Assembly (NCBI GenBank): GCA_948471525.1
Contig: CAOKSY010000001.1
Location: 243,465-307,464, forward strand
Length of the DNA: 64,000 bases
DNA from: an uncultured Clostridia bacterium
Lineage (GTDB): Bacteria; Bacillota; Clostridia; Christensenellales; UBA3700
Direction of reading: 5' to 3'
The notes beneath the pieces are model-generated. The model saw only the letters and a list, made by a program, of their open reading frames with translations. It made no database searches and was not told where the DNA came from. Both the position numbers and the translations under genes were made by a program. Of this stretch, positions 32,239 through 62,398 are shown piece by piece (position 1 is the first letter of the stretch; each line of letters starts with the position of its first letter).

Positions 32239-32313
32239 TACAATATTTTTAAGTCCAATGATTATATAAAAATAAAAACCGTCGGACATAAAATTACACT
32301 GTATATTTCTCTT

Positions 32314-32423
32314 TGTGGAAAGTGTGGATAACTAAATAATCTTATCAACATATTTTGGTATATAAATGTTGATGTTTTTTTAGAATATGGGTCGATTAAA
32401 GACACTTATCAACACTATCAACA
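32314..32423. promoter_or_regulatory. DnaA-box cluster in the dnaA-dnaN spacer (oriC-like)
   Basis: Perfect TGTGGATAA at 32323-32331. TTATCAACA (1 mismatch) at 32342 and 32406. Weaker boxes at 32314 and 32415. Confidence 0.65.
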
Positions 32424-32437
32424 CAGTTATTATGGTG

Positions 32438-32478
32438 ATTATTATCTAATCAATATAAAATAAATAATATATTATAAG
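32438..32478. promoter_or_regulatory. A+T-rich tract, candidate DNA-unwinding element
   Basis: attattatctaatcaatataaaataaataatatattataag lies directly after the box cluster, as in the Bacillus dnaA-dnaN origin half. Confidence 0.45.
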
Positions 32479-32497
32479 CATCAAGAGGTGAACAAGT

Positions 32498-39896: not shown

Positions 39897-41054
39897 TTAT
39901 TTTTTCTTTTTATCGTTGTTCTTTGCGCCGAAATAAGTCTTCTGTGAAGAAGAGGATACTGTGACGGCTGAGTTGGTTTTTTTCTCGTCGGATTTCTTTG
40001 CGATTATATTGAATATAAGAGTAACTATTGTCATAAACAGATTGCTCATAAAGTAATATATCGCAAATGCCGCGCTGTATACGATCGCGAAAAATCCGAG
40101 TACCAACGGCATAAGATACGTCATTATTTTATTCATCATCTTCTGTTGCTTTTGCTGAGCTTCGTCGCCTGTAGTCATAGGTTGCATAGGCTGAAGTTTC
40201 TGCTGAAGCATAGTAGAGAAAAAGCTTGTCAGTATCGAAAGTATCGGCAAGATGAAATATCCGTTCCAGTTGCCCATATCGAAGAATTTCTTCTTGTTGT
40301 ACGCATTGATGATAGGAGACATCAATTCGTTATAGCACGTGCCGGGCAATTCGGGTATCGTAGCCGCAATTCCGCCGAAGCCCGTAGCCTCGAAGTTCTT
40401 CTGACTGGGAATTACGTTGGCAAACGTGTCTGACATAAATACGTTCTTTACCCACAGCCAGCTTTCGGGCTTGTATCCGTCAACAAGAGCCGCGTTGAGC
40501 TGCTCGACTAAGCCTGCGTTTTCAATCAAATTATACGACGGTATGGAGACAAGTTTTCCCGCTTCGACCACGGTCTGTCCCGCCGCGGCGTTTATAGCGT
40601 CGGCGTTTTCTATAAAGAAATTGACGTACAGCGCGTATTGATTGCTTACTATCTCTTCGTTTTTGGAAATGATATATTCTCTGAAACCTTGGAAGATAAG
40701 AGCGAATATCACCAACGTAAAGATCATCGGCAAACAAGATGCAAACATATTGATATGCGCGGATTTTTGCAGTTCGAACTGCTTTTGACGCAGTATATCC
40801 GGTCTGTTGGCGTACTGTCTTTGCAGTTTTTCCATCTGCGGACGCAACGCGTCCATCTTGGCCTTCTGTTTGCGCATGCTGATCTTTTGCCATATGTCGA
40901 ATGGCGTGAGTAAAAGCCTCAGCAAAAGAGTGAAGACCACTACCGTCCAACCGAAATTGCCGATGCCTTTGTTCATCCAATCCAACAACTTTATAATAGG
41001 TTGCCAGACGGAGCTTACGGCAGCCAGCATATTACTTAAATTCATAATAGCCAT
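39897..41054 (-). CDS. yidC: Membrane protein insertase YidC
   Basis: 385 aa, multi-TM, canonical position after yidD/rnpA, Lys-rich C-terminus. Confidence 0.9.
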
Positions 41055-41281
41055 TTTGCGTTTCCTTTAAAATCGTCTTTGACGGGATCGTATCCGCCTT
41101 TTGAAAAGGGATTGCATCTCAATATTCTCGCTATACCCTGCGCCGTGCCGCGAAGCCGTCCGTATTTGGCGATCGCCTGCGACATATACGCGGAACAACT
41201 CGGCGTATATTTGCACCTGTGCGGCAAAACGGGGTTTATAAACCGCTTATAATATCGAATTAATAAATTTCCGCTTTTCAT
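41042..41281 (-). CDS. yidD: Membrane protein insertion efficiency factor YidD
   Basis: Start chosen at ATG 41281 (79 aa). [19 protein letters not shown] motif. Confidence 0.8.
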
Positions 41282-41417
41282 CTTAATCTTTTTATCTTTT
41301 GACAGTTTAAAATAAGCCGTCAAAGATAATTTCTTGGTCCGATTTAGTCAAGAAAACTTTCGGACCGGGTATTTCTGTAGGCGCAAACGACAAGTTTACG
41401 CGGCTTTTTTATAAAAA

Positions 41418-41819
41418 TCAAGTATTCTGCGCGATCGACTCTCTCTTTTTCAACGAAAGTTTTTCGACCGTTTCTTCGTCAATATTATTGACCAGAAGTT
41501 TGGATTTTTTCAAAGCCTGTACGATGGAATCCGCAATTTGAGAAAAAGTCGAGTCGGCGCATTCCGCTCTCGCTATGATTATATAGTTGCATTTATCCTC
41601 GACAAACGGTATCAGTGCGCGAAATGCTTCTCTCAGACGTCTGCGAACCTTGTTTCTGACGACGGCTTTGCCTACTTTTTTGCTTACGATAAATCCTACC
41701 TTAAGCGAATATTTCGACGGCGCATAAACAAGTACAAGCCGCTTATTTGCAGTGGATACTCCTCTTCTGTGCAGATAATTGAATACTCTGCTGCTTTTGA
41801 GCCTGTACTTTTTTTGCAT
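41418..41819 (-). CDS. rnpA: Ribonuclease P protein component
   Basis: 133 aa, basic, KKVGKAVVRNKVRRRLRE. Confidence 0.88.
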   Translation of the reverse strand: MQKKYRLKSSRVFNYLHRRGVSTANKRLVLVYAPSKYSLKVGFIVSKKVGKAVVRNKVRRRLREAFRALIPFVEDKCNYIIIARAECADSTFSQIADSIVQALKKSKLLVNNIDEETVEKLSLKKRESIAQNT

Positions 41820-41826
41820 TGCAATA

Positions 41827-41961
41827 TTATGCGGTCAGTTGCTTTCTGCCCTTGTTGCGACGTCTTTTGATTACGTTTCTGCCGTTTTTGGTACGCATTC
41901 TCTCACGGAAGCCGTGAACCTTGGATCTCTGTCTTTTTTTAGGTTGATAAGTCTGTTTCAT
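41827..41961 (-). CDS. rpmH: 50S ribosomal protein L34
   Basis: Below the ORF-track cutoff. I translated [44 protein letters not shown] (44 aa). Confidence 0.9.
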
Positions 41962-42005
41962 TTTTGTATCCTCTCTTTTATATATAAATAAAATTATGCT
42001 ATATC

Positions 42006-42034
42006 AGTATATATAAATTGGAGACGGGTGTCAA
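42006..42034 (-). promoter_or_regulatory. Sigma-A-type promoter of rpmH operon (TTGACA-17-TATACT)
   Basis: On the minus strand, -35 at 42034-42029 and -10 at 42011-42006. Confidence 0.55.
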
Positions 42035-42144
42035 GTAATTTGGCGCAGTTGAATACAAATGCGTTTGGGAGCATTGACAATAAAGATGTAAAAAGCAAAA
42101 ATAATTCTTAAAATAAATGATAACGCAGTTGATTTACAGGACTT

Positions 42145-42172
42145 TTGACACAGCCCTCGGTAATACTATAAT
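42145..42172 (+). promoter_or_regulatory. Near-consensus promoter-like element (TTGACA-16-TATAAT) pointing antisense into the flavoprotein gene
   Basis: TTGACA at 42145-42150 and TATAAT at 42167-42172. No plus-strand gene follows. Confidence 0.4.
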
Positions 42173-42181
42173 GCAATAATA

Positions 42182-43213
42182 TCAAATACTCCTCATATTT
42201 TTAAACCTGTCGGACATAAACGATAACAAATGCCACTGTCGTTTCATATATTTCTCAGTTTGGGAAGCGTTTATAATATACTGTGAAATTACTTTGTTCG
42301 GGCGGTCGAAGTTCTCGGCAATGGCTTTTGCGGCGGCATATCCGCTCTCTATTGCCGACGAGATTCCTTCGCCCATAGGATTGAGAAAACCTGCGGCTTC
42401 CCCTGCGCGCAAAATCCTTTCGCATCCGTAGTCGACCGAGAAGTCGGGGCGAATACGCGGCATTATCCACTTCTCTTCCTTTACTTTTTCAAAAATATTT
42501 AAATTGTAGGACCTCTCCAAGTGAACTTTAAAAGCGCTGTAAAATCCATTTAATTTGCCGATATCGTTATTTTTGACAGCCGTTCCTATCACGAGCATAC
42601 CGTCTTTGACGTTGAGCCAAGCGTCATATTGCGAAAATTCAGGCTGAAGAAAAGCATAGAAATAATGCGGGTCGAGATCTATCGTTCCGCGAAAAAAACA
42701 TTGATATGTGACGATAAAATCTTTTTTTGACGGAGAATCGGTTAATATTATCGAATTTGCCGCTCCGCCGCAGTTGATGAAATAAGCGGCTTTTTCTCGA
42801 TATGATTTGTCAAACTCAACGTCGACGCGATCGCTGAAAGAAGCGCAGCTAATTATAGAACGGTTGTCGATCAACTTTGCTCCCGAGTCGATCGCCATAT
42901 CCGTAAGCCAGCTATCAAAAGAACTCCGCCATACGTTAAGCCCTTTTTGTTCAAAACGGTACTCATTTCCCTCGTCATTGACAAATATCATTCCTTTATT
43001 GTCTGAAGGCGCGCATTTTACGCGATCAGGTATATCCGAGCCGAAATAATCACTGATAAGTCGTATAGTTTTTTCGATTATCATACCCGAGCAAGACTTA
43101 TATCGAGGTAATTTATGTCTTTCGGTAATCAATACCGAAAAACCTTTATCTGCTAATACTTTAGCGCAAGTTGCGCCGGCTGGACCGGCGCCGGCAATAA
43201 TAACGTCGCACAT
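42182..43213 (-). CDS. FAD-dependent oxidoreductase (geranylgeranyl-reductase-like flavoprotein)
   Basis: Start at ATG 43213 (AAGGA RBS), 343 aa. DVIIAGAGPAGATCA dinucleotide-binding motif. Confidence 0.8.
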   Translation of the reverse strand: MCDVIIAGAGPAGATCAKVLADKGFSVLITERHKLPRYKSCSGMIIEKTIRLISDYFGSDIPDRVKCAPSDNKGMIFVNDEGNEYRFEQKGLNVWRSSFDSWLTDMAIDSGAKLIDNRSIISCASFSDRVDVEFDKSYREKAAYFINCGGAANSIILTDSPSKKDFIVTYQCFFRGTIDLDPHYFYAFLQPEFSQYDAWLNVKDGMLVIGTAVKNNDIGKLNGFYSAFKVHLERSYNLNIFEKVKEEKWIMPRIRPDFSVDYGCERILRAGEAAGFLNPMGEGISSAIESGYAAAKAIAENFDRPNKVISQYIINASQTEKYMKRQWHLLSFMSDRFKNMRSI

Positions 43214-43496
43214 TTTATTCCTTTTGCTGATTGATATCGCTATTATAATACCATATCGCCGGCAATATATCAAGTAATAGGTATTCAAGATCAATATAAC
43301 CAATAATTAAACACAGTGCAAAAATATATGCAGATAAAATAACTTTAAGTAAATAGTTTGATGGCGCAATATAGCCTATAATAAATAACGGAAGAAAAAT
43401 AATTAATTTTTAATATTGATTATGGGTCAATAGGCAATATGATGCTCCAATATTTATCCTAGAGCCGCTGTATTTCGTATCTAAATTTGCGAGGCA

Positions 43497-43521
43497 AAGA
43501 ATGCTTGGTAAAGCATTTTTT
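43497..43521 (+). terminator. Terminator-like hairpin plus T-run
   Basis: AATGCTT-ggta-AAGCATT followed by TTTT. Confidence 0.4.
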
Positions 43522-43627
43522 ACATACTCAGTAAATATGTGTATGTCACAATAGGCGTTACCACATCAATGTAACAGATATGGATACATAATGGGAATAA
43601 TAGCTTAAAAGGACAAGCTACTGTATT

Positions 43628-43643
43628 TGTTCCACGTGAAACG
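43628..43643. promoter_or_regulatory. parS site (ParB/Spo0J binding), 15/16 match
   Basis: TGTTCCACGTGAAACG versus the Bacillus consensus TGTTNCACGTGAAACA. Confidence 0.8.
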
Positions 43644-44147
43644 GGACAATAATTCCCAACAGTATTTGATAACTTGGATATTGTCTTGAGATGAGAATTA
43701 ATAAAACTGTCTATCCTTTCGTAAGTTTAAATGGTGCTTGTCTGCAGAGAGAAACTTAAGATTAATTGAAAACGTCTTAGATAATAGATCATAAATAGTA
43801 TGTTAGTAGTTGTGGCGACTAAGTCAACATATCAAAAGTAGTGAATTGTTGATGCAGTAATGATGCTTATATTATTCTACACGACACGTGCTTTGCCCTA
43901 TCTCAAGCAATAAAGAGATCGGCGGTAAAATAAATTTATGAAAATCTACAACGCGGCTTACTCGTATTATTTGGTTACGTAAGAGCTTAATGATTCCATA
44001 GTTTAAAGCAATGAAATATCCAGATCATCTTTCTTATCTGAAAATTGCGCTAGCACTGTCTCAAAAGTTCGGGAAAATCTATTTTTCATTTCAATTGTAA
44101 TTTTAAAATAACAAAGTTATTTTAATTTTGCCAACTTGCAGATAATG

Positions 44148-44173
44148 CAGTATGCGAATTCAATCGCATACTG
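44148..44173. other. Perfect 10-bp hairpin/inverted repeat
   Basis: CAGTATGCGA-attcaa-TCGCATACTG. Confidence 0.6.
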
Positions 44174-44335
44174 TTCTCTTCCATTCTACTCTTTTGAAGA
44201 TGACGTAATGTGACGTTGTTAGTGGCATAATAAGTATTTGAGTTGATATTAGATCTACAGGCGCTTTATATCTATTGAATCGCACGTAGCGTCATAGGAT
44301 AACTTTTATATGGTAAACTTTAACATGCGCGCAAA

Positions 44336-44344
44336 TGTGGATAA
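44336..44344 (-). promoter_or_regulatory. Perfect DnaA box
   Basis: TGTGGATAA, the complement of TTATCCACA, followed by C. Confidence 0.7.
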
Positions 44345-44392
44345 CTAGCTAGCTTAGAAATATCCAACGGACATAACAGTATGTATATATGA

Positions 44393-44408
44393 AGTTTCAC
44401 GTGCAACA
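44393..44408. promoter_or_regulatory. parS-like site, 14/16 match
   Basis: AGTTTCACGTGCAACA. Confidence 0.6.
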
Positions 44409-44452
44409 ATTTACAAAAACAAGACGGTTGCAACTATTAATGAGTGTGGAAT

Positions 44453-44461
44453 TGTGGATAA
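44453..44461 (-). promoter_or_regulatory. Perfect DnaA box
   Basis: TGTGGATAA followed by C. A degenerate TGTGGAATT lies directly upstream (44445). Confidence 0.7.
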
Positions 44462-44774
44462 CGCACAAGCAGATAACGATACCCACATATTTAATCCTAA
44501 GCAGCAGTTGCTATAAAGTAATAAAGATTAGCAACGTTCCCACCAGTATTGCTATCTACAGTGACAATCAAGTTTCACAGCGATCGGGATAGGTTTTATA
44601 TTTGCAATAACATAGTATGAAGCCTTTGCCCCTTTTTTACTGCTCTGACATTTGTCTGTTCATCTATGACTGATGGATATTGCGTATATCTATTGGATCT
44701 ATTCCATCGCTAAATCATACTGTGCTCTGTCGTACTCCCAATGGCATAACGGAACCGTATTGTGTCAGGTCAAG

Positions 44775-44802
44775 TTATCTTGCTGAGATTTATCTTGAGA
44801 TC
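44775..44802 (+). repeat. Adjacent direct repeat TTATCTTG(CT)GAGAT
   Basis: TTATCTTGCTGAGAT is immediately followed by TTATCTTGAGATC. Confidence 0.6.
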
Positions 44803-44880
44803 TGCTGAATACACTGTAATATTAGCGATTTAAGGTAGAAATTGAGTTGTTTCATGACAGGTTGTCTTGCTTGTCCAAAT

Positions 44881-44896
44881 TGTTTCCTGTGAAACA
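44881..44896. promoter_or_regulatory. parS-like site, 14/16 match
   Basis: TGTTTCCTGTGAAACA, with mismatches only at the two central-left positions. Confidence 0.6.
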
Positions 44897-45024
44897 TTAT
44901 TGAGACATCTATATTCTAAAAACGACGATTCTAGCACTTTATTTTCTCAAATTGGGTGATTTTGCTAGACAATTACTGATATATTTCTGTATAAAATTGG
45001 CTGTCTTGCTACTTTTTCAGGCTT

Positions 45025-45047
45025 TGTTTCACGATTTTTGTGAAACA
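45025..45047. promoter_or_regulatory. Split parS: both half-sites perfect, separated by 7 bp
   Basis: TGTTTCAC-gattttt-GTGAAACA. The arms extend to 9 bp (TTGTTTCAC/GTGAAACAA). Confidence 0.5.
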
Positions 45048-45102
45048 ATTTGGCGATTAAAAATACGACTATATTTCGTTGGTTTTAGTATTATATCTAC
45101 TG

Positions 45103-45128
45103 AAAATGGCATGTTTTTGCCATTTTTT
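45103..45128. terminator. Terminator-like hairpin (bidirectional form)
   Basis: AAAATGGCA-tgtttt-TGCCATTTT plus extra Ts. Confidence 0.5.
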
Positions 45129-45175
45129 ACTGAACAGGTTCAATAATTTCAAATTTTCAAAGATAAAATCCGATT

Positions 45176-45235
45176 TTGAATAAATTAACTGATAAAGTTT
45201 ATAATTAATACTGTAGATATTTTAGTAGATCTACT
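45176..45235 (+). promoter_or_regulatory. Promoter (TTGAAT-18-TATAAT) and 12-bp palindrome AGTAGATCTACT upstream of the 48-aa ORF
   Basis: -35 at 45176-45181, -10 at 45200-45205, perfect palindrome at 45224-45235 between the -10 and the RBS. Confidence 0.45.
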
Positions 45236-45251
45236 CTATCGGGAGGGAAAT

Positions 45252-45398
45252 ATGCCTAGATGTATAATTTGCAACAGACACATCGAATATGAAAATGCAT
45301 ATATGTGCGATAAATGCAACAGTTGTACGTGCGCGGAATGCATTATAAGGTATGGCAAAGACTGCGATTGCGGCGGTAGATTGCATCACGTAAATTAA
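45252..45398 (+). CDS. 48-aa cysteine-rich (11 Cys) zinc-ribbon-like small protein
   Basis: Below the ORF-track cutoff. GGGAGGG RBS 4 nt upstream. MPRCIICNRHIEYENAYMCDKCNSCTCAECIIRYGKDCDCGGRLHHVN. Has its own promoter and terminator. Confidence 0.55.
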   Translation: MPRCIICNRHIEYENAYMCDKCNSCTCAECIIRYGKDCDCGGRLHHVN

Positions 45399-45400
45399 AA

Positions 45401-45436
45401 ACGGCCTTGATGATCTCAAGGTCGTTATTTTTTTAT
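45401..45436. terminator. Bidirectional terminator (small ORF / yabQ convergent)
   Basis: ACGGCCTTGA-tgatc-TCAAGGTCGT (one G-T pair), then a T-run. Confidence 0.65.
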
Positions 45437-45796
45437 GCGTTTTGCAAATTTGCTTTGTGAAATTTTGCGGATCAGTGCGTCGCATTTGCGTTTAATGGTT
45501 TTTCTGTATCTCATTATAGGCATATTTATTGCCAATCCGATAGCTACGCTCGCAAACAGCGATATCAAAATATGGTAGAAATGCAGATTGTATTCGAATT
45601 TATTTAATATGCAATAAAAAAAGCATATACCGTACGTTAATGCATATAAAATCTGCGATATGTGACGGTAAAATACATTCTTTATCAGAAATGCGCAGAC
45701 AAACCAGTTCAGCGAATACAGCAGTCCGAAAGCCGCTCCGATCGCCGAACATATCAGCAACGCATATGGCTGAGATAACGTGTCTCCCAATATCAT
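45425..45796 (-). CDS. yabQ: Spore cortex biosynthesis protein YabQ-like membrane protein
   Basis: Start at ATG 45796 in an ATGA overlap with the yabP stop. 123 aa, 3-4 TM, basic tail. Confidence 0.7.
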   Translation of the reverse strand: MILGDTLSQPYALLICSAIGAAFGLLYSLNWFVCAFLIKNVFYRHISQILYALTYGICFFYCILNKFEYNLHFYHILISLFASVAIGLAINMPIMRYRKTIKRKCDALIRKISQSKFAKRIKK

Positions 45797-46077
45797 TTGA
45801 ATACCCGTTTGAAGAAGGATACTTTTTGCTTTCCTTTTATGTATTTCAGCGTCGCCAGACTGCCGGATATAGTGCACGTGTAGCGTACTGTGTCTAGATT
45901 GACTACCGTCAGCTTTTCGCCTGTTATTATAAGCGTTTTGTCGCCGAGAGCGGCAACTATCTGTTTGTCGTCGCTTTCGATCATATTTGTGATGCCGTTG
46001 ACCGTAATGCTGCTGTCAAAATCTATGCCTACCGATTTCGGCGTCTTTGCCGACACGGAAGAAGTTATCTGGCTCAT
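45793..46077 (-). CDS. yabP: Sporulation protein YabP
   Basis: 94 aa. LIITGEKLTVVNLD...ISGSLATLKY is typical of YabP. Confidence 0.85.
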   Translation of the reverse strand: MSQITSSVSAKTPKSVGIDFDSSITVNGITNMIESDDKQIVAALGDKTLIITGEKLTVVNLDTVRYTCTISGSLATLKYIKGKQKVSFFKRVFK

Positions 46078-46325
46078 TTTTACACCTCTTTGTTATTATG
46101 CGCTCAATTATAGATATTTTTGCAACTTATTTCGTTAAATCGGAACTATTATTCCCGTGGGCGATAAATATTCGTTCGCTATCGATTTGTGAAATTGGTT
46201 GCGTTAGATAATATAATATATTTTAATTTGTTCCAAATATGCGGAAATTCTGACATTTTTTTATATTTTTAAATTTGTTCGAGCTTTGTCGTACTTATGT
46301 TTTTGGATAAATTGGCGTTTATATG

Positions 46326-46354
46326 TTGACTAAAATAAGGATATTTGTTAATAT
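46326..46354 (+). promoter_or_regulatory. Promoter for tRNA-Leu (TTGACT-17-TAATAT)
   Basis: -35 at 46326-46331 and -10 at 46349-46354, about 20 nt before the tRNA. Confidence 0.5.
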
Positions 46355-46374
46355 AATACTTGCCTAAATAATTT

Positions 46375-46461
46375 GCGGATATGGCGGAATTGGCAGACGC
46401 GTAAGATTCAGGTTCTTATGGTCGTAAGGCTGTGCAGGTTCAAGTCCTGTTATCCGCACCA
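46375..46461 (+). tRNA. tRNA-Leu (anticodon CAG), type II with long variable arm, encoded CCA
   Basis: I folded it by hand: acceptor GCGGATA/TATCCGC, 3-bp D stem, anticodon stem TAAGA/TCTTA with loop TTCAGGT, T arm GCAGG-TTCAAGT-CCTGT. Confidence 0.93.
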
Positions 46462-46469
46462 GGAAAAGC

Positions 46470-46502
46470 GTAAGTCAAAAATATTTGACTTACTCTTTTT
46501 TA
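46470..46502 (+). terminator. Rho-independent terminator after tRNA-Leu
   Basis: GTAAGTCAAA-aata-TTTGACTTAC followed by TCTTTTTTT. Confidence 0.75.
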
Positions 46503-46619
46503 TTATGTATAACTAATGACTTGAATAACAAATATTGCTGATTTTCTAATTGTAATAAACATTTGGTGTAAAAATAAACAGAGGAACAAATTATTCCGCG
46601 ATATTGCATTGATTATACT

Positions 46620-46823
46620 TTAATCTTCTCTTCCAAAAAGATAATCGATTGAAACGTTAAAAAAGTCCGCAATGATTATCGTGGTTTTTTGGTCAGGTTC
46701 GAACTGACCTTTTTCCCATCTTTGCAGATTTGGTTGGGAGGTTTTGATTATCGCTGCTAATTGTCTTTGCGATAATCCGTTTTCCTCACGTAGTTCTTTC
46801 AATCGTTGTCCGAAAATTTCCAT
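46620..46823 (-). CDS. XRE-family HTH regulator (cI-like)
   Basis: LSQRQLAAIIKTSQPNLQRWEKG. I prefer ATG 46823, which has TATAAT 7 nt upstream (possibly leaderless). The ORF track starts at TTG 46850. Confidence 0.75.
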   Translation of the reverse strand: MEIFGQRLKELREENGLSQRQLAAIIKTSQPNLQRWEKGQFEPDQKTTIIIADFFNVSIDYLFGRED

Positions 46824-46856
46824 AAATTTATTATACATTAAATACATCAAAAATAC

Positions 46857-46886
46857 TTGACTAATACATTTAATGTATCATATAAT
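46857..46886 (+). promoter_or_regulatory. Promoter (TTGACT-18-TATAAT) with near-palindromic operator TACATTTAATGTA in the divergent XRE spacer
   Basis: -35 at 46857-46862 and -10 at 46881-46886. The related word ACATTAAATACAT lies nearby. Confidence 0.5.
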
Positions 46887-46921
46887 GATTATATATAAAA
46901 CGTATCAGAGGAGGAATTGTA

Positions 46922-47209
46922 GTGGAGGAATCAGAAATTTATAATTTACTAGGCCACAGATTTTTGCTGAATTGGAAAGAAAAAATAGAGAAAGATGAGG
47001 GGGATACGTGGTTTTTTACCAATGAAAAGCAAGAATTAGAAAAAATAAAAGAATTTTTTAATGAAGACGAGCAGAAATTGATATTTCGTTATACGTTGGC
47101 TATGGAAAACAAATTTGAATATCTTTATTATAATTTAAATATCAAAATCCTAAATTTTGGAGTTAAAATCGGTATGGAATTACAAAAAGCATTTTTAAAG
47201 GATGATTAA
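46922..47209 (+). CDS. Hypothetical protein (GTG start, GAGGAGG RBS)
   Basis: 95 aa, acidic/helical, no family recognised. Confidence 0.5.
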   Translation: MEESEIYNLLGHRFLLNWKEKIEKDEGDTWFFTNEKQELEKIKEFFNEDEQKLIFRYTLAMENKFEYLYYNLNIKILNFGVKIGMELQKAFLKDD

Positions 47210-47344
47210 GAAATTTTGTTAATTTCAACTTCTCAAATTATTGAAAAAAGAGTATTATATGTCTGCAATTTTACGCATATTGCTATTTACAATTTAGTAA
47301 AAATATGAGATACTAATAAAAATATTTTAACGGAAGTATAAATT

Positions 47345-47854
47345 ATGTTTAACGACGATAAAGGTATGAGGGAAATGGCATTGGCTATTACTCATTATGT
47401 TTATAGGAATACTGCTATAGAAGACCATCATACAAATAACGTGAGAATGGATATGCAGTTCTATAAAAAAATATATAATTTGGTTTATAAAAAACTTAAT
47501 ACGGTAAAAGCGCTGCATAAATATATTGCCGACTATCCAAGCGCTGCAATAAAAAGAAAGGAAGATTACCAAGGACTTTTAAAGAGTGTGCCTGAAGAAT
47601 ATCAATTTAAATTTATAATTTACGTTCAAGATATTTTTGAATTAATTATTAATAAATTCGGTCTAGCATGGGAACCGGCTCAGGAGATAACTTGTGACTT
47701 GAAAGATAAAAGCCTTGCAAATTATGTTTTGTCGGGATGCTTTTTGGAAAGTTGTAAAAACAATGCGATTTTGGATGATCCGACAATGTGTTACATCAAT
47801 AAAGATATACACAATAGGATCTATACTTTGCTAATAAACGGTCATCTTAATTAG
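47345..47854 (+). CDS. Hypothetical protein
   Basis: 169 aa, no family recognised. Confidence 0.5.
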   Translation: MFNDDKGMREMALAITHYVYRNTAIEDHHTNNVRMDMQFYKKIYNLVYKKLNTVKALHKYIADYPSAAIKRKEDYQGLLKSVPEEYQFKFIIYVQDIFELIINKFGLAWEPAQEITCDLKDKSLANYVLSGCFLESCKNNAILDDPTMCYINKDIHNRIYTLLINGHLN

Positions 47855-47908
47855 TTATTTATTGTCAATTAAGCATATAAAAGAATTGTCGGGAACTAGG
47901 AGAATAAA

Positions 47909-48631
47909 ATGCCAACGTGGAATCCGTGGCGAGGTTGTCAAAAATATAGCGAAGGTTGCAAATATTGTTATATCCATAAAGGGGATTTCAAACGGAAGAT
48001 CGATACGAACGATATCGTAAAGACGGATAATTTTTATGCTCCCATAGCCAAGAATAAATCGGGCGAATATAAAATCAAATCGGGGCAGACGGTGTATCTT
48101 TGCTTTTCCACGGATTTTTTGATTGAGGAAGCCGATGACTGGCGGTCGGAATGTTGGCAGATGATCAGGGAGCGTTCCGATTTGCACATTTTGTTTTTAA
48201 CAAAACGCATCGAGCGGTTTATGGATTGCATACCCGATGATTGGCAAGACGGATACGACAACGTTACCGTAGGATGTACGGTAGAGAATCTCTTTATTAT
48301 GATTATAAAACTTAAACTGTTGCGTGAAAAGCGGAATTACGCGATTTACAAGGCGTTGGGATATACTATCGTCGACATAATGACGCAGATAGCGATCTCT
48401 ATGGTCATACTGGGCGCGATAGGAAGTCTGGTAGGGGCGCTGGTCGGGGCGTTTACTACGTCCCCCATACTGTCGCTATTCGGCGGATATATCGGCGCGG
48501 GGCATTTTGATTTTGTGATACCGTGGGGATTTACCGTTGCGATAATTTTCGGTATTTGCGCGTTGGTTTATCTTGTTTCTATGCTTTGCGCGATATCGGT
48601 AAGACGTATCCGACCGGCTATGGAAAGATAA
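47909..48631 (+). pseudogene. Chimeric ORF: N-terminal half of a phage Gp37/Gp68-like (DUF5131) protein fused in frame to the C-terminal TM bundle of an FtsX-type ABC permease
   Basis: MPTWNPWRGCQKYSEGCKYCY... runs to about residue 128. Then LLREKRNYAIYKALGYTIVDIMTQIAISMVILGAIGSLVGA... is FtsX-like. The junction is near 48290-48310. Confidence 0.55.
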
Positions 48632-48680
48632 TATACTGCGGCGTCGTAATAGTCTTGTAATTTGCGTTTTCGGCGAGTAT

Positions 48681-48715
48681 TTAATAGACGGCAAAACTTG
48701 TTTGCCGTCTATTAA
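48681..48715. other. Perfect 15-bp hairpin
   Basis: TTAATAGACGGCAAA-acttg-TTTGCCGTCTATTAA. No clean T-run follows, so terminator function is uncertain. Confidence 0.5.
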
Positions 48716-48791
48716 AATAATTCGATATTGACAGAATAAATAATATATAGTATCCTTATACAGTAATAATTGAAACCAAAAGGAGCCCTAT

Positions 48792-50453
48792 ATGGACGCA
48801 AGATCGTTATCGTTCGACATAAAGTATAAAGCCGACGGCAAAAAGTATATCTGCAAAAGCGATAAATGCGAGCATTTTTCTCTCAAATATGATTTGACCG
48901 ACGGAGTGCTGAATTTATCTGTTTTTCCAAATGCAAAAATAGAATTTTTATCTTTCAATATTATTACCCCTTACAAATACTCGTCGGACGACAGGATATT
49001 TGTCAACGGATATCAGAGCTGGACGGACAGTATGGAATATTTTACCGACGGCAAGATGAGCGAACTCAAGGGAACCGTAAGAAGATTCATAAAGAGTCCT
49101 ATGGGCAAGAAGATAGGACTTTCTAAATCGGGCGATACGCTTTTTTGGAAATATCCTAAGAAATCGGGAGTATTTTACGGCTGGTCGTACGGATACGTGC
49201 GCAGAGGCAACCGCGTAGACATATTCGGTTCGCTCGACGAAAGATGCGGATATACGGCGGTTACTTTCGACTGCACCGCAAACGCCGTCGTCATCACCAA
49301 AGAATTGCAGGGAGTTGTATTCGAGAGCGAGAAGAAATTACTCGCGTTTGCTACCGTCAGCGGAGAGTACGACGCGGCGTTTGACGAATATTTCGACAAG
49401 ATGAACGTCAAATCCAGAGAGAACAAAAAGCGAGTCGGATATACGTCTTGGTATAACTACTATTCAAATATAAGCGAAGAAATAATAAATCGCGATCTTG
49501 ACAGTATCGCAAATCAAGATACTCACTTCGACTGTTTTCAGATCGACGACGGATATCAGAGAGCTGTAGGCGACTGGCTGATCACGGATACCAAGAAATT
49601 CCCCAACGGGATGAAGGTCATAGCGGACAGCATTCACGCGCACGGTATGCTTGCGGGACTGTGGCTTGCGCCCTTTGCCGCGACAAGAAAGTCGTTGCTT
49701 TTTCAGGAGCACCCGGATTGGTTTATAAAAGACAAAAACGGCAAGCCGTATAATACCGGTCCCAACTGGGGAGGCTTCTATTCGCTGGACGTTTACAATC
49801 CTCAGGCAAGAGATTATCTCAAGCGCGTATTCGACGTCGTGCTCAACGAATGGGGATACGATCTCGTCAAACTGGATTTCCTTTACGGCGCTTGCGTGCT
49901 GCCTATGTACAATAAGACTCGCGGCGAGATCATGTGCGACGCTATGGATTTTATAAGAGAATGCTGCAAAGATAAGCTGATACTCGGTTGCGGCGTTCCG
50001 CTTATGCCCGCATTCGGCAAAGTAGATTACTGCCGAATAGGCGCGGATATAGATCTTGCGTGGAAAAACAAACCCAATACCATTCGCGAAGACGTCTCCA
50101 CTCCGCACGCCGTATGCAATACCGTATTCAGAAGGCATCTCGACGGCAGAGCTTGGAAAAACGACCCCGACGTATTTATGCTCAGAGACAACAATATGTT
50201 TATGCCTTTGAAGAAGAGAAAACTTCTGGCAAAGATAAATTCCACTTTCGGAAGTTTACTGTTTATTTCCGACGACGTGCGAGAGTACGACGAAGAAAAG
50301 AAAGCCGCGCTCAAAGACACTTTTGAACAAAAGGACGTCGAGATCATTTCGGCGGGCTTTGAGAAAAAAGATATATTGAAGTTGGTCTTCAGCGAGAACG
50401 GCGAGAGCAAGACGCTTGTTTTCAACGTGCGCAACGGAGAAGAATTCCAATAA
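48792..50453 (+). CDS. Alpha-galactosidase (GH36/melibiase-like)
   Basis: 553 aa. DCFQIDDGYQRAVGDWL, LVKLDFLY, CRIGADI. Confidence 0.85.
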   Translation: MDARSLSFDIKYKADGKKYICKSDKCEHFSLKYDLTDGVLNLSVFPNAKIEFLSFNIITPYKYSSDDRIFVNGYQSWTDSMEYFTDGKMSELKGTVRRFIKSPMGKKIGLSKSGDTLFWKYPKKSGVFYGWSYGYVRRGNRVDIFGSLDERCGYTAVTFDCTANAVVITKELQGVVFESEKKLLAFATVSGEYDAAFDEYFDKMNVKSRENKKRVGYTSWYNYYSNISEEIINRDLDSIANQDTHFDCFQIDDGYQRAVGDWLITDTKKFPNGMKVIADSIHAHGMLAGLWLAPFAATRKSLLFQEHPDWFIKDKNGKPYNTGPNWGGFYSLDVYNPQARDYLKRVFDVVLNEWGYDLVKLDFLYGACVLPMYNKTRGEIMCDAMDFIRECCKDKLILGCGVPLMPAFGKVDYCRIGADIDLAWKNKPNTIREDVSTPHAVCNTVFRRHLDGRAWKNDPDVFMLRDNNMFMPLKKRKLLAKINSTFGSLLFISDDVREYDEEKKAALKDTFEQKDVEIISAGFEKKDILKLVFSENGESKTLVFNVRNGEEFQ

Positions 50454-50483
50454 TTTTTCAATAGTAAAATAACTGTATCGATA

Positions 50484-50538
50484 ATTGTCAACTTGTTTAT
50501 CAAAATTGGTTGACAATTATTTTTTATTTCTGTATACT
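50484..50538 (+). promoter_or_regulatory. BirA operator (inverted repeat) overlapping the birA-bioY promoter
   Basis: ATTGTCAAC-N16-GTTGACAAT is a perfect 9-bp inverted repeat. TTGACA (50510) -17- TATACT (50533). Confidence 0.65.
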
Positions 50539-50570
50539 TGCAAAGAACAAGGCCTTGAGAGGTAAGAGCT

Positions 50571-51557
50571 ATGACTTTAAAAAACAGGATATTGCAGATT
50601 TTCGAGAATCACAGAGGAGAAAGCATCTCGGGGCAGCAGCTTGCCGACGAGCTTTGCGTATCGCGCAACAGCGTGTGGAAGAGCGTCAAATCTCTTCAGA
50701 ACGAGGGCTACAGGATCTTGGCGGCGACCAACAAAGGATATATCCTCGAAGAGGACAACGATATCGTCTCGCGTGAGAGCGTCATAGCCGCCCTGGGAGA
50801 CAGGTATTCGCTGGCTGACATCTCAGTGCTCAAGACTACGCCGTCGACCAATACAGAGGCAATGACGAGGCTTTTGGACGGCAGGATAACGCACGGATCG
50901 CTCATCGTCGCCGACGAGCAGTCCAAGGGCAGGGGAAGAATGGGCAAGAGTTTCTTCTCTCCCAAGAGCGGTATATATATGAGCGTCTGTCTGTGTAAGA
51001 GCGTGGAGAATATGTCGGACGTGATGGTCATCACTCCCGCGGCGGCGGTGGCGGTGCGCAGGAGCATAGCCAAATTTACCGATATAGACGCGCGGATAAA
51101 GTGGGTCAACGATATATATATCGGTAAGAAAAAAGTATGCGGTATCCTCACGCAGGCGGATATAGATTTCGAGAGCGGCAAGGCGGGCACTTTTATCGTA
51201 GGTATAGGGATAAACTTTATAAATCAAAAATTCCCCGACGATATCAAGGACAGAGCGTGCGCGCTGTTTGACGAGCGTCCCGTCTCGGTGACGAGAAGCA
51301 AGATGATAGCGGAGATATATTCTCAGTTGCTCGATCTTACGGACGATCTTTCCGATAGATCGTTTATGGACGAATACAGACGTTATTCGTTGGTCTTAGG
51401 CAAGGAGATAAGCTATTCGCTCAACGGCGAGGAAAAACGCGGAACCGTGAGAGATATAGACGACGACGGCGCGCTGATAGTGAGAGAAGGGGAAAAGGAG
51501 CGCAAACTTAATTGCGGAGAAATTTCTATAAGGAGTGCGGACAATGAATGGATCTGA
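50571..51557 (+). CDS. birA: Bifunctional biotin--[acetyl-CoA-carboxylase] ligase / repressor BirA
   Basis: 328 aa. N-terminal winged HTH (ISGQQLADELCVSRNSVWKSV) and ligase core KGRGRMGKSFFS. Confidence 0.9.
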   Translation: MTLKNRILQIFENHRGESISGQQLADELCVSRNSVWKSVKSLQNEGYRILAATNKGYILEEDNDIVSRESVIAALGDRYSLADISVLKTTPSTNTEAMTRLLDGRITHGSLIVADEQSKGRGRMGKSFFSPKSGIYMSVCLCKSVENMSDVMVITPAAAVAVRRSIAKFTDIDARIKWVNDIYIGKKKVCGILTQADIDFESGKAGTFIVGIGINFINQKFPDDIKDRACALFDERPVSVTRSKMIAEIYSQLLDLTDDLSDRSFMDEYRRYSLVLGKEISYSLNGEEKRGTVRDIDDDGALIVREGEKERKLNCGEISIRSADNEWI

Positions 51558-52230
51558 CAAAAGACAAGACCCGATAGACGGGGAAGACAATGCCGTTTGC
51601 GAGAGCGAAAACGGCGCTATCGAAATGACTGACGGCGCGAGAGCGCAGGCGGTTGCGGCTCGAGACAAGAGGAGAACTTATCTTCTGGGAATAGCGATGG
51701 CGGGTATTTTTATCGCATTCATCGCGGTCGGCGCGTATATCAATATTCCGATCGGCACGATAAAGATAACGATGCAGTTTTTGGTTACTAATATCTGCGT
51801 GCTGTTGCTCGGCAAAAAGTGGGGAACCCTCACCGTTGCGCTATACGTATTCCTCGGACTTTGCGGATTGCCGATATTTTCCGATTTCAGCGGCGGTTTC
51901 GCGTATGCGCTCAAGCCCTCCTTCGGATTTTTGATAGGCTTTGTGGTAGGCGGATTTTTTGCATCTTGGTACCGTGAGAAGACGGGCAAGAATACCTTCG
52001 GCGTATATATGACGGCTTCTATGATAAATCTTGTGATAATGGATATCATAGGCACTGTTTACGGCGCGGTGATCATGTACGGATATATGCATTCGACTAT
52101 GGGCGCGTGGGCTTTTCTTATGACGTTTTTGCTGCCGTTTATTCCGATAGACATAGCAAAGTGCGCGGTGGGCAGCGTCGTATGTTGCAGACTGTACAGA
52201 TTCGGTCTCGCGGAGAGAAGGGCGTCCTGA
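51535..52230 (+). CDS. bioY: Biotin transporter BioY; start uncertain
   Basis: 5-6 TM BioY-like core. The N-terminal ~45 aa are acidic or unstructured, so a later start is possible. Confidence 0.8.
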   Translation: MRTMNGSDKRQDPIDGEDNAVCESENGAIEMTDGARAQAVAARDKRRTYLLGIAMAGIFIAFIAVGAYINIPIGTIKITMQFLVTNICVLLLGKKWGTLTVALYVFLGLCGLPIFSDFSGGFAYALKPSFGFLIGFVVGGFFASWYREKTGKNTFGVYMTASMINLVIMDIIGTVYGAVIMYGYMHSTMGAWAFLMTFLLPFIPIDIAKCAVGSVVCCRLYRFGLAERRAS

Positions 52231-52260
52231 CGGATAAAAAATAAATACAGATACGGCTTT

Positions 52261-53787
52261 ATGGCGGCATGTCGTTTTGGCACGCCGCTATTGCTTTTTT
52301 GTATAAGCGTGATAGACTGGATAGTAGTCTCTGCTCTTTCCCCGAAGAATGGAGAATTTATGATTTTGAAATTCAAATATCGCGCCGAAGACGGAATTCT
52401 CGAGCCTTACCGCGAATATACCGTCGCCCGATACAGCTCGATGTCCGACAGAGTCGTCATTGATTTCGACGGTGATTCATTCGATCCGACGCGGTATATT
52501 TTTTATCTCGAATTCGTAAGCTACGACGGCCGCGGTATACCAAGATCGCGTTGCGTTACGCCTATATTGGAATATAACGGCGGAATAACTTACGATTTGC
52601 CTGCCTCTCTTACTCAATACGCCGGACACGTAGATATGCAGCTGACGGGATGCGACGGGACCGATTCGTCCAAAGTCTTCAAGAGCGTGAGCAAATATTG
52701 CAAAGCCTTCGAGGTAGAAGACTCGGCGGGCGTAGTGGAAAACGAGATTGCGCAGACTCCCAATATTTTTACTCAGATCGTCAAGCAGTTGGATGAATTC
52801 GGCAGACAGTGCGAGAGCGAGATAGAGAATATCAGAGCTCAGCTCAAAGACTCTCTGCCCGCGCTTCTCGACGGAAAAAATATCTATACCGTGGAATTCG
52901 TCGTATACGGAAATACGGTAAAGAAAATAAACGTCATAGAGGGAAGCAAGCTGAGCGAACCGCAGTATTCTCTGCCCGAAAAATGTTCGGTCGTAGACGG
53001 TTGGTATATCATCGACGGGATAGATGGCAGACTGTGGGATTTTTCGACGGACAGGGTGGAGGACAATATGCGCCTCACGCTCAATTTTATGAGCGACGGA
53101 CTTGTATTTTCCCAAGGAAAACTTATCGGCGCGGGCAATGCTTCAGGGGCGATATACGTGCCCGAGTTTTATGATGGAAAGGCTGTTACGGAAATTGACG
53201 GCAATATCGCGCTTAATGCTTTCGGCTTGGAATTCTATATGCCGAGCAATATGGATATATCCTGTTTTGCCGCGCTCAAAAACAGCAAAGTAAAGCATAT
53301 CAAATTCCCTGCAGGCGGCTTGTTTAAAATAAGTCCCGACGACGGCGTATATACGGACAGGGATAAAGTCGGGGTCGAGGCTTGTTTTTTTCTCCCGAGG
53401 GTTTATATAAGCGAGGTTAGAGTAAACGGTCCCGCCGAATATCTAGGTCCCTATGCGATAAGCGACAACACTTACGTTACGTCGATCTCTCTGCCCGCGA
53501 CTATGAGATATTTTATCGAGGGATGTATTTGCAATACCGGCGTCAGATCTCTTAAGATCCCCGCGGCGGCGGAGAGCATCGAAGAATATGCGATAAAAGA
53601 CAATACCTCCCTTCAGGCGGTGTATTTGGAAGGGGATTGCTCGCAAGGGATAAACGAAAATTCTTTTGTCGATACGACGGTAACTCCGCACAGAAGACCT
53701 ACGCTCTACGTGAGATCGGAATATTACGGTAAGTACGCCGCGAGAAATTTGCCTTACGTCTTGAAGAAGATAGGCGAGGACAACTGA
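52261..53787 (+). CDS. Leucine-rich-repeat (BspA-type) protein with an unassigned N-terminal domain; alternative start ATG 52360
   Basis: C-terminal repeats (FPAGGLFKI..., LPATMRYFIEGCICNTGVRSLKIP, IEEYAIKDNTSLQAVYLEG). The long form adds a signal-anchor-like GTPLLLFCISVIDWIVVSAL. The short form has a GGAG RBS. Confidence 0.65.
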   Translation: MAACRFGTPLLLFCISVIDWIVVSALSPKNGEFMILKFKYRAEDGILEPYREYTVARYSSMSDRVVIDFDGDSFDPTRYIFYLEFVSYDGRGIPRSRCVTPILEYNGGITYDLPASLTQYAGHVDMQLTGCDGTDSSKVFKSVSKYCKAFEVEDSAGVVENEIAQTPNIFTQIVKQLDEFGRQCESEIENIRAQLKDSLPALLDGKNIYTVEFVVYGNTVKKINVIEGSKLSEPQYSLPEKCSVVDGWYIIDGIDGRLWDFSTDRVEDNMRLTLNFMSDGLVFSQGKLIGAGNASGAIYVPEFYDGKAVTEIDGNIALNAFGLEFYMPSNMDISCFAALKNSKVKHIKFPAGGLFKISPDDGVYTDRDKVGVEACFFLPRVYISEVRVNGPAEYLGPYAISDNTYVTSISLPATMRYFIEGCICNTGVRSLKIPAAAESIEEYAIKDNTSLQAVYLEGDCSQGINENSFVDTTVTPHRRPTLYVRSEYYGKYAARNLPYVLKKIGEDN

Positions 53788-53797
53788 GGAGCGCGTC

Positions 53798-54085
53798 GTG
53801 AAAAGGTGTAAATTTTTCAGAAAAGCCGCGGAAGGAAAAGTACTCGCCAAGGCGGACGGCGGCAGACTTATCTATGCCAGAGGAAGAGTAGGATCGAATA
53901 CCGAGTACGGAATAAGTACCTGGAGAGAGTTCGACTCGGTGGAAGAGGCGGCGAAGGCGCTTGGAGTGCCCGTGCCGCAGATAAGAAGAGCGCGCATATA
54001 TCCGCCTTCCTTTATGGCTGACGGATTGGACAGACCTGCGCTCAGGGGATATTCGTACAGAGATATATTCGACGTAAAAAATTAG
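53798..54085 (+). CDS. Hypothetical protein (GTG start)
   Basis: 95 aa, no family recognised. Confidence 0.35.
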   Translation: MKRCKFFRKAAEGKVLAKADGGRLIYARGRVGSNTEYGISTWREFDSVEEAAKALGVPVPQIRRARIYPPSFMADGLDRPALRGYSYRDIFDVKN

Positions 54086-54133
54086 TTTTACATAATTATT
54101 TCGCCTTTGCCTATACTATCGTCGGAGGTCAAT

Positions 54134-54658
54134 ATGAAAGAGACGGGAATAGTAAGAAGAATCGACGAGTTGGGCAGAGTGGTGATACCCAAAGAATTGA
54201 GAAAAGTGCTCAAACTCAAAGAGGGCGAACTGCTCGAGATATATACCAACGACAAGAGCGAACTGGTATTCAAGAAATATAACGAAGTCGGCGCGACTCA
54301 GGATCAGCTCGATCTTATCAGCAAGATACTGTACAAGAACACGGGCAAAGAAGTGGCGATATGCGATACGAGCAGCATACTCGCGCATTACGGCGGCAAA
54401 AACTATCTTCAGGGCGAAGATATAAGCGACGAACTTTACGGCGTGCTCGACGACAGAAAGTCGCGGCTTATAAAGGACAGAAACGTCAAGATCTCGGACG
54501 AAGGAGAAAAGCCGAAAGACGTGGAGCAGTATATAGTGCCGCTTATCAGCAGCGGAGATCTCTACGGAGGTATCATTCTTTCCGCGGACAAACTCGGCAG
54601 CGTGGACATGGCGCTCTGCGACGCGATGGCTCAGTATTTGATATACAATATAGGCTGA
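54134..54658 (+). CDS. spoVT: Stage V sporulation protein T (AbrB-type N-terminus plus sensor domain)
   Basis: Start at ATG 54134 (GGAGG RBS). IVRRIDELGRVVIPKELRKVLKLKEGELLEIY. Confidence 0.85.
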   Translation: MKETGIVRRIDELGRVVIPKELRKVLKLKEGELLEIYTNDKSELVFKKYNEVGATQDQLDLISKILYKNTGKEVAICDTSSILAHYGGKNYLQGEDISDELYGVLDDRKSRLIKDRNVKISDEGEKPKDVEQYIVPLISSGDLYGGIILSADKLGSVDMALCDAMAQYLIYNIG

Positions 54659-54659
54659 T

Positions 54660-58513: not shown

Positions 58514-58539
58514 GGAAAACGCGTTCGTCGGAGGAAAAA

Positions 58540-59088: not shown

Positions 59089-59091
59089 TAC

Positions 59092-59121
59092 AAAAACCGC
59101 CTTACGTCGAGGCGGTTTTTG
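59092..59121. terminator. Bidirectional terminator (trmL / radC convergent)
   Basis: AAAAACCGCC-ttacgtcga-GGCGGTTTTT. Confidence 0.7.
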
Positions 59122-59132
59122 TATATTACTGT

Positions 59133-59918: not shown

Positions 59919-59939
59919 CTTTTGTAAGTTCCTTGTGTT

Positions 59940-61676: not shown

Positions 61677-61843
61677 ATGATCACCTCGCTAAATTAAATT
61701 TTATCATATACGCGCGAGAAATTCAATATACTTAGCATAAATTAAACATACTTAAAAGGTAATATATAGATTACAGTGTCAAGATAGTTCCGACAGGCGA
61801 AAAAAACGGGATCTTGCGACCCCGAACGTGAATGAAATTTGCG

Positions 61844-62374: not shown

Positions 62375-62398
62375 ATTTCCCCGCTTATCCTTTATACG

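Follow-up and report, generated by a model that had tools for sequence, protein, structure and literature searches.

The window analysed here is a stretch of 64,000 nucleotides (64 kb) from an uncultured Clostridia bacterium of the order Christensenellales, and it harbours a gene-free island of 1.95 kb with a cluster of parS-type sites, the predicted binding sites of the partition protein ParB. It is likely, with a probability of roughly 0.7, that this island is the chromosomal centromere and that the edge of the cluster is formed by an outer module at which ParB would bind without being loaded. The outermost element of the cluster is a split parS (N7), the two perfect halves of which lie 7 bp apart. 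The features of the island are the following.

43304–45251, no strand: putative centromere island, gene-free, 1.95 kb, AT-rich (GC about 0.33), between the gene for a FAD (flavin adenine dinucleotide) reductase-like protein/rpmH and the open reading frame (ORF) Cys48.
43628–43643, no strand: parS-1 (TGTTCCACGTGAAACG), one mismatch to the consensus TGTTNCACGTGAAACA, near-canonical, likely (predicted) clamp-loading site.
44393–44408, no strand: parS-2 (TGTTGCACGTGAAACT on the minus strand), one mismatch, near-canonical, likely (predicted) loading site, with DnaA boxes on both sides.
44571–44578, plus strand: isolated half-site AGTTTCAC, missing from the alignment of relatives and thus unconserved.
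44848–44855, minus strand: degenerate half-site (TGTTTCAT; CATGAAACA on the minus strand), conserved in position, 33–45 nt from site 3.
44881–44896, no strand: site 3 (TGTTTCCTGTGAAACA; GTTTC-ACAG-GAAAC on the minus strand), two mismatches, both in the central tetranucleotide, one perfect half.
45025–45047, no strand: split parS TGTTTCAC-GATTTTT-GTGAAACA, both halves with 0 mismatches, outermost in the cluster, predicted to bind ParB without clamp loading.

The whole window was scanned for 16-mers with at most two mismatches to the parS consensus TGTTNCACGTGAAACA, with 100 shuffles as control. Exactly three such 16-mers occur in the 64 kb where 0.08 are expected, and none of the 100 shuffles gave as many as six strand-matches to the consensus. 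For the split site the expectation in the window is 0.03 even with two mismatches allowed, and the observed site has none. The sequence-only reading from which the analysis started had listed the sites at 43628, 44393 and 44881, the split site at 45025 and the half-sites at 44571 and 44848, and had seen no other such 16-mer in the window; the exact scan recovers all of these and adds no 16-mer to the three. A chance origin of the sites is rejected by the shuffles and by their conservation in relatives. Position 2 of the sites is G and position 7 is A, which makes them parS-type rather than matches to the Noc-binding site (NBS; ATTTCCCGGGAAAT). They lie 144–765 nt apart with no repeated unit between them of the kind seen in iterated plasmid-type centromeres.

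The half-site heptamer GTTTCAC/GTGAAAC is present in six copies in the window, equal to the chance total of 6.02, yet all six fall within 43636–45046 and none in the remaining 62 kb, so that the dispersed half-parS pattern of the Pseudomonas aeruginosa type is not found in the 64 kb. Outside the island (1–43303 and 45252–64000) the count of zero stands against about 5.8 expected from shuffles, which hints at an avoidance of ectopic half-sites. In 16 relatives the equivalent gaps hold 90 heptamers in 52 kb (4.5–7 expected), and 240 kb outside these gaps hold 9 against 8–25 expected depending on Markov order, so the depletion there is weak. The roughly 240 kb of flanks in the same relatives contain a single 16-mer with two mismatches outside the gap (L026 at 3413), probably by chance, and the more distant L044 has another at 3590. 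The contrast that the sequence-only reading drew with the dispersed parS layout of Bacillus applies to the 64 kb and to these flanks.

The non-coding location claimed by the sequence-only reading is borne out, as 43304–45251 contains no ORF of at least 70 amino acids and the translated matches fall in several frames and on both strands, at the sites only, which argues for conservation at the level of DNA and not of coding sequence. On the same grounds, together with the lack of conserved ORFs, hidden genes or pseudogenes were rejected. The short ORFs of the gap have no match in NCBIfam; Rfam gave none in the gap at gathering or E-value thresholds, its only hit being a tRNA-Leu outside the gap. 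Promoter-like matches in the gap are at chance (11 against 11.8 expected), hence internal promoters or terminators were rejected, and no Spo0A boxes were found in the gap of the window. An origin from a mobile element or plasmid was likewise rejected, because PLSDB yielded no similarity and synteny is kept across the order. An assembly artefact is ruled out by L001 and L002, assemblies from other samples that are 100% identical over 41001–46200.

Relatives were gathered via YidC with one genome per GTDB species, giving 53 loci of about 20 kb each that were not chosen on the split site. The gap and its sites occupy the same syntenic position in about 30 Christensenellales genomes, down to 35–50% YidC identity, and every clade locus that covers the region has two to four parS-type sites between the Cys48 ORF and rpmH. 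The equivalent gap in 17 relatives measures 2.0–4.6 kb, with a GC content of 0.26–0.35, and is poor in ORFs. By alignment and blastn, conservation within it is limited to the rpmH promoter, the four ParB-type sites and the DnaA boxes on either side of the middle one. The distal parS is kept in relatives together with its flank GGGAATTA, and the equivalent of parS-2 is kept in all of them. Site 3 has an equivalent in all 24 aligned loci, where its central tetranucleotide is never ACGT, and at the position of the 44848 half-site most relatives carry CGTGAAAC(A).

The protein that would act on these sites is encoded within the window, and its coordinates had been given correctly by the sequence-only reading.

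33673–34536, minus strand: parB, with the Pfam domains ParB_N, HTH_ParB and ParB_C; of the cytidine triphosphate (CTP)-clamp type with parS-specific residues.

The closest solved relative of this ParB is Bacillus subtilis Spo0J (E = 1e-51), ahead of Noc, and the CTP-clamp motifs GERRFRA and ENLQRQDL are both present. Specificity for parS or NBS is set by the positions equivalent to Caulobacter R173, T179, A184 and G201 (PMC7383237). The ParB described here has R, S, N and G at these four positions, which places it in the parS class: its R158 and G186 are the equivalents of Caulobacter R173 and G201 and do not vary in the clade, and neither 179 nor 184 is represented by K, the residues being S and N. 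An identity as Noc was rejected, since the residues are not Q173, K179/K184 and R201, the NCBIfam Noc score of 231 stays below the cutoff of 315, and Spo0J is the best match.

No Soj-type Walker A motif (KGGxGK[ST]) exists in the 64 kb or in the clade loci, whichever frame is read, and the full ParABS combination of a Soj partner and the ParA-activating LG(R/K)GL motif of ParB is accordingly absent from both. A parA gene was found only in the distant L039 and L040, between rsmG and parB, two genes that in the window are separated by merely 127 nt. The ParB N-terminus has no LG(R/K)GL, whereas the ParB of L039 and L040 carries KKGLGRGLSALF. Residues 1–30 (34447–34536) show in its place the clade-conserved pattern ..IDS..T.YD..G.LNEGVE. 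Taken together, the missing Walker A motif, the 127-nt gap, the ParB N-terminus and the contrast with L039/L040 make the loss of ParA look genuine, as in Streptococcus pneumoniae (PMC7022226). With ParA absent from the window and the clade loci, the array would not be a ParABS motor centromere of the plasmid or Caulobacter style, to which the sequence-only reading had likened it. Among the relatives ParA is retained by L039 and L040 alone; both lack a split site and carry the tandem pair GGTTTCATATGAAACA-6 nt-CGTTTCACGTGAAACA (7540–7600 in each). With these two loci as support, split sites may be correlated with the loss of ParA.

A spore-former lineage is indicated by yabP and yabQ, and the window represents the origin region of the chromosome. 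The genes of the window run in the order gyrA(-), gyrB(-), GNAT(-), recF(-), dnaA(+), dnaN(+), parB(-), rsmG(-), mnmG(-), mnmE(+), jag(-), yidC(-), rnpA(-), rpmH(-) and FAD-reductase-like(-), followed by the gap and then by Cys48(+), yabQ(-), yabP(-) and tRNA-Leu(+). The arrangement between 24468 and 43303 is unusual and conserved in the clade, with dnaA and dnaN pointing away from recF-gyrB-gyrA and towards parB...rpmH, and with mnmE inverted relative to mnmG. The probable site of unwinding lies between dnaA and dnaN.

32239–32497, no strand: dnaA-dnaN spacer, probable oriC unwinding module, with tandem DnaA boxes, an nAT-trinucleotide run and an AT-rich tract.

This module is kept down to L036, at about 43% YidC identity. 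A model that fits two terms, replication side and coding strand, to whole-gene GC skew places the switch near dnaA and not at 44 kb, and puts the rpmH-parB block on the lagging strand (a moderately firm result); the skew thus suggests that the block rpmH-rnpA-yidC-jag-mnmG-rsmG-parB is head-on to replication from the dnaA-dnaN origin. GC skew at third codon positions was dropped for placing the origin, being too noisy and confounded by codon usage. The conserved module of boxes, trios and AT-rich tract and the switch of the whole-gene skew together identify the dnaA-dnaN spacer as the unwinding origin. The parS cluster is origin-proximal, at 11–12.6 kb from this module.

The proposal that the region is a dedicated ParB loading centre is therefore a fair reading, because conserved parS-type sites, a parS-specific ParB with an intact CTP clamp and a tight intergenic cluster near oriC come together. 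By homology, ParB dimers would recognise parS-1 and parS-2, close as CTP-bound clamps and slide onto the flanks, and the sliding clamps would build an origin-proximal partition complex. Since ParA is missing and the ParB N-terminus cannot be expected to activate it, this complex would most likely act in ParA-independent roles, by analogy with S. pneumoniae in SMC loading and in organising the origin region. The DnaA boxes flanking parS-2 would possibly allow cross-talk with DnaA. The outer module, composed of the N7 site at 45025, site 3 at 44881 and the half-site at 44848, should bind ParB without catalysing clamp closure. It would hold open-state ParB at the edge of the cluster and so act as an anchor or bookend, be it a roadblock, a point of bridging or pairing, or a local reservoir of ParB. 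Effects of roadblocks on ParB sliding are documented (PMC7053999, PMC8299390, PMC9242446).

The split site was followed through two sets of loci. In those selected via YidC, a scan with the parS halves set 0–12 bp apart and no more than one mismatch allowed found 43 sites with a spacing of 0, 26 with a spacing of 7 and none at any other spacing from 1 to 12. Metagenome contigs were scanned for TGTTTCACAAANNNNGTGAAACA, which returned 84 stretches; these loci (L060 and above) were chosen for one N7 site, a choice that constrained neither where other sites lie nor how far apart the halves of a second site are, and they contain 152 sites with spacing 0 and 109 with spacing 7, besides only three overlap artefacts. 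Many loci are related to each other, so that none of these counts equals a number of independent events.

Within the gap the N7 site is the best-conserved block. In 21 relatives neither half deviates from the consensus, and four more distant, AT-rich relatives (L035, L036, L041 and L044) show a single mismatch; within the DNA covered, the canonical sites do not reach as far. Position 5 is tolerated in the N7 halves just as in parS, and the spacer begins with an A-tract, AAA(A)nn(C). Site 3 always accompanies the N7 site, at 144–151 or 183 nt, and a half-site 33–45 nt past site 3 completes the outer module.

All loci taken together, N7 and canonical sites are combined in 72 clusters. In 68 of them an N7 site takes the outermost place, on one side in 42 and on both in 26; among the four exceptions are the concatenated bracketed arrays of L112 and L140. 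Two architectures can be distinguished. In the first, which is Christensenellales-like, a single N7 site stands at the edge of one to four canonical sites upstream of rpmH. The second, seen in 26 loci, consists of tight arrays of two to five canonical parS in units of about 52–62 nt, bracketed on both sides by N7 sites and located between tsaD and yraN, 2.5–3.5 kb upstream of yebC-ruvC-dnaA-dnaN. Judging from the NCBI names of their DnaA, the array genomes belong to Candidatus Paceibacterota/Parcubacteria/Patescibacteria of the candidate phyla radiation (CPR). Each unit of the CPR arrays carries TGTTTCACG(T/C)GAAACA (L094:3790–4210, L110:10690–11100, L112:2740–3380, L074:2040–2380). The CPR N7 sites are often 2 nt from a perfect DnaA box or within a longer palindrome GTCGCACAATAT...ATATTGTGCGAC, and L112 and L140 have three bracketed arrays in a row. 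In further lineages, an N7 site and a canonical site lie between dnaN and gyrB (L065:824–1006, L108:3745–3927). The N7 site is directly upstream of recF in L066:1226–1248 and L104:2546–2568; these lineages and L065/L108 have a GC content of 0.40–0.49.

The strict 7-bp spacing, the high conservation and the placement at the cluster edge set the N7 site apart as a class of its own, and not as the fourth parS that the sequence-only reading had counted. An in-vitro precedent is offered by work on B. subtilis ParB, in which the insertion of 1–8 bp between the parS halves left affinity unchanged and abolished the stimulation of CTP hydrolysis, an effect put down to the loss of the steric clash that drives closure of the N-gate (PMC8494293). 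As spaced parS bind without stimulating the CTPase, natural N7 is predicted to hold open, non-sliding ParB. It is tentatively proposed, by analogy with these constructs, that the split parS is a distinct class of centromere element which binds ParB in its open, non-clamp form and marks the edges of loading-competent parS clusters. On this proposal, held at somewhat less than even odds, the N7 site would bound, anchor or bridge the partition complex, and the 7-bp geometry might conceivably correspond in nature to the spaced parS that were engineered and do not catalyse closure of the N-gate.

Several points weigh against the reading of the island as a centromere with a non-loading edge. No SMC, ScpA or ScpB gene was recognised among the scanned ORFs of the window, and ParA could in principle be encoded elsewhere, though the lost ParB motif speaks against that. 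The spacer result was obtained with B. subtilis ParB on synthetic DNA, and the ParBs considered here might use N7 differently. Recruitment between ParB dimers reportedly bypasses roadblocks (PMC9242446), which weakens a simple roadblock model and leaves the roadblock as only one option for the split site. If array units duplicate internally in tandem, the end sites could stay terminal without selection, and because the canonical sites of the AT-rich relatives are on the other side of the split site, the edge has no fixed direction with respect to oriC. Finally, the selection of L060 and above on the split site makes its frequency there uninformative; its position relative to canonical sites was unselected.

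A different explanation, which is unlikely as an account of the main role of the island, is that it serves replication control, either as a remnant or second half of oriC or as a cluster of boxes that titrates or regulates DnaA, with the parS sites as passengers or DnaA-binding modulators. The evidence bearing on it comes from the DnaA boxes on either side of parS-2.

44336–44344, minus strand: DnaA box, perfect (TTATCCACA), 49 nt from parS-2.
44445–44461, minus strand: tandem DnaA boxes (TGTGGAAT-TGTGGATAA on the plus strand), weak at 44445 and perfect at 44453, 37–45 nt from parS-2.

In Firmicutes the dnaA-proximal half of oriC ancestrally lies directly upstream of rpmH, where the island is located, and in the subclade of the window perfect boxes in the same orientation flank the middle parS at about 50 nt on either side. 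L002, L007–L010, L012, L013, L017 and L027 retain the box at 44336, with about 47 nt between it and the middle parS, and the equivalent of the tandem boxes in relatives reads TTATCCAC(A/T)tTTcCAC. In L029–L045 perfect boxes in inverted orientation stand at 15 and 12 nt from a parS. A search for DnaA boxes with at most one mismatch within 14 nt of 142 split sites found one beside 18 of them, all in a subset of the CPR arrays and at 2 nt in the printed examples. DnaA-box clusters in B. subtilis act together with Spo0J in the control of initiation (PMC3245932), and in Vibrio cholerae ParB2 governs ori2 via a half-parS (PMC3688505). Yet the 2-kb gap contains only two boxes with at most one mismatch, no DnaA-trio, DNA unwinding element or AT-rich unwinding pattern accompanies the boxes of the island, and no conserved sequence follows them. 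L016–L026 retain the parS sites but have no perfect boxes, and the complete conserved module sits in the dnaA-dnaN spacer, with the skew switch near dnaA. The island as the unwinding origin was rejected for this reason, having two perfect boxes plus weak ones where the spacer has the full pattern. A role in replication control and a centromere can both hold.

It is rather improbable that the N7 site, and perhaps site 3 too, serves as operator for another protein or forms a DNA/RNA hairpin, its half-site sequence being shared with parS by coincidence. The strict 7-bp spacing and the A-rich asymmetric spacer do point to a defined complex and not to two independent half-sites, the palindromes in which CPR N7 sites are embedded (GTCGCACAATAT...) possibly belong to another factor, and the 8-bp arms could pair as a hairpin. 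Against an operator, in two phyla the halves are the same as those of parS and share its tolerance at position 5, N7 occurs only beside canonical parS clusters in origin regions, and the affinity of B. subtilis ParB for spaced halves is normal (PMC8494293). A hairpin is opposed by the absence of a terminator tail and of an Rfam family, and the arms show no covariation across genomes at about 40% YidC identity, which indicates that the sequence itself is read and not a stem. Rex and CRP/FNR boxes have a consensus order that is the reverse of TTCAC...GTGAA. As its halves are in the opposite order, the split site was rejected as a box of either type.

That the sites are mainly operators through which ParB regulates its neighbours (the rpmH operon, Cys48 and yabPQ), like PA0011/PA0013 in P. 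aeruginosa, is very unlikely: the module of split site and site 3 is about 100–300 nt upstream of the rpmH promoter in the AT-rich L035, L041, L044, L069 and others and about 130 nt upstream of the Cys48 promoter in the window, and ParB-dependent repression near parS is on record (PMC7022226, PMC4488948), but none of the sites overlaps a promoter element (-35/-10), 3 kb separate the module from rpmH in the clade of the window, the neighbour varies between clades, and the CPR arrays are between tsaD and yraN, leaving the origin region and canonical parS as the only constant context.

The neighbourhood of the island has features of its own. The Cys48 ORF (48 amino acids, 45252–45398, plus strand) has four CxxC pairs and no Pfam match, and adjoins the island in all close relatives as well as in the metagenomic loci L062 and L134. 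A conserved palindrome TTGAACnnGTTCAA (45131–45142) is found just upstream of its likely promoter TTGAAT-18-TATAAT (45176–45205). On the other side, the gene for a FAD-dependent geranylgeranyl-reductase-like protein (42182–43303) stands between rpmH and parS in this species and, with 47% identity, in L027 but in no other relative, and looks like an insertion into the island. Further along, the 1.3 kb or so from 46078 to 47344 are again AT-rich (GC about 0.31) and poor in ORFs, and contain tRNA-Leu(CAG) at 46375–46461 and no parS-type sites. The ORF at 47909–48631 matches DUF5131 in its N-terminal part and the C-terminus of an FtsX permease in its C-terminal part, an odd fusion or a pseudogene, and L021 has an 87% identical piece in another position.

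In B. subtilis the cross-talk between ParB and initiation runs through Soj. Unlike in B. subtilis, no Soj was found here, and DnaA boxes physically flank parS or, in the CPR, abut the split site. What is shared with the DnaA-box clusters of B. subtilis and with the ParB2 half-site in ori2 of V. cholerae is the juxtaposition of ParB-type and initiator sites with cross-talk between them (PMC3245932, PMC3688505), and by analogy the recurrent pairing of parS with DnaA boxes may amount to ParB-DnaA cross-talk without Soj.

Among the known partition systems, that of S. pneumoniae is alike in that it is a Firmicute with a ParB but no ParA and a handful of origin-proximal parS, and its ParB recruits SMC independently of ParA and affects neighbouring genes (PMC7022226, PMC4488948). 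The island differs in having its sites in one conserved 1.4-kb stretch of gene-free DNA, together with the N7 site, the deviant 16-mer and the DnaA boxes. Clustered parS near oriC that nucleate a single ParB complex are also known as parS1–4 of P. aeruginosa and from Myxococcus xanthus (22 sites) and Caulobacter (PMC7022226, PMC4368675), yet these systems work with ParA and the papers describe no spaced edge element. The half-parS of P. aeruginosa, the heptamers GTTTCAC and GTTCCAC, are similarly bound by ParB without spreading (PMC7022226, PMC10419367). They number in the hundreds and are spread genome-wide, whereas here the heptamer is confined to the island and two halves are set exactly 7 bp apart. 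The synthetic spaced parS of Antar et al. (2021) share the intact halves separated by inserted base pairs (1–8), and kept ParB affinity but stimulated neither CTP hydrolysis nor closure of the N-gate (PMC8494293). Those sites were engineered as a test of the steric clash, while the 7-bp version is natural, conserved in two phyla and placed at the edge. Clustered origin-proximal parS, a ParB without ParA and the binding of half-parS are thus already known (PMC7022226, PMC4368675, PMC10419367). No account of a natural spaced parS, or of parS in Christensenellales or Patescibacteria, was found in a literature search that left most subscription journals outside its reach, and the split parS element is probably new.

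The centromere call alone is solid but ordinary. What is new is the architecture of a gene-free island that combines loading-type parS with an exactly spaced split parS, and the recurrence of the same split element as a bracket around the parS arrays of so distant a phylum as the CPR. To this is added the recurrent physical pairing of parS and DnaA boxes in lineages without Soj. The split element provides a sequence signature with which centromeres can be annotated in genomes of uncultured Firmicutes and of the CPR. In current models it is the apposition of the half-sites that makes parS a catalyst of ParB clamp closure. A selected site that keeps the halves but breaks their apposition would imply that open-state, non-sliding binding of ParB has a function of its own, and the bounding or anchoring of partition complexes becomes testable with natural N7 DNA.

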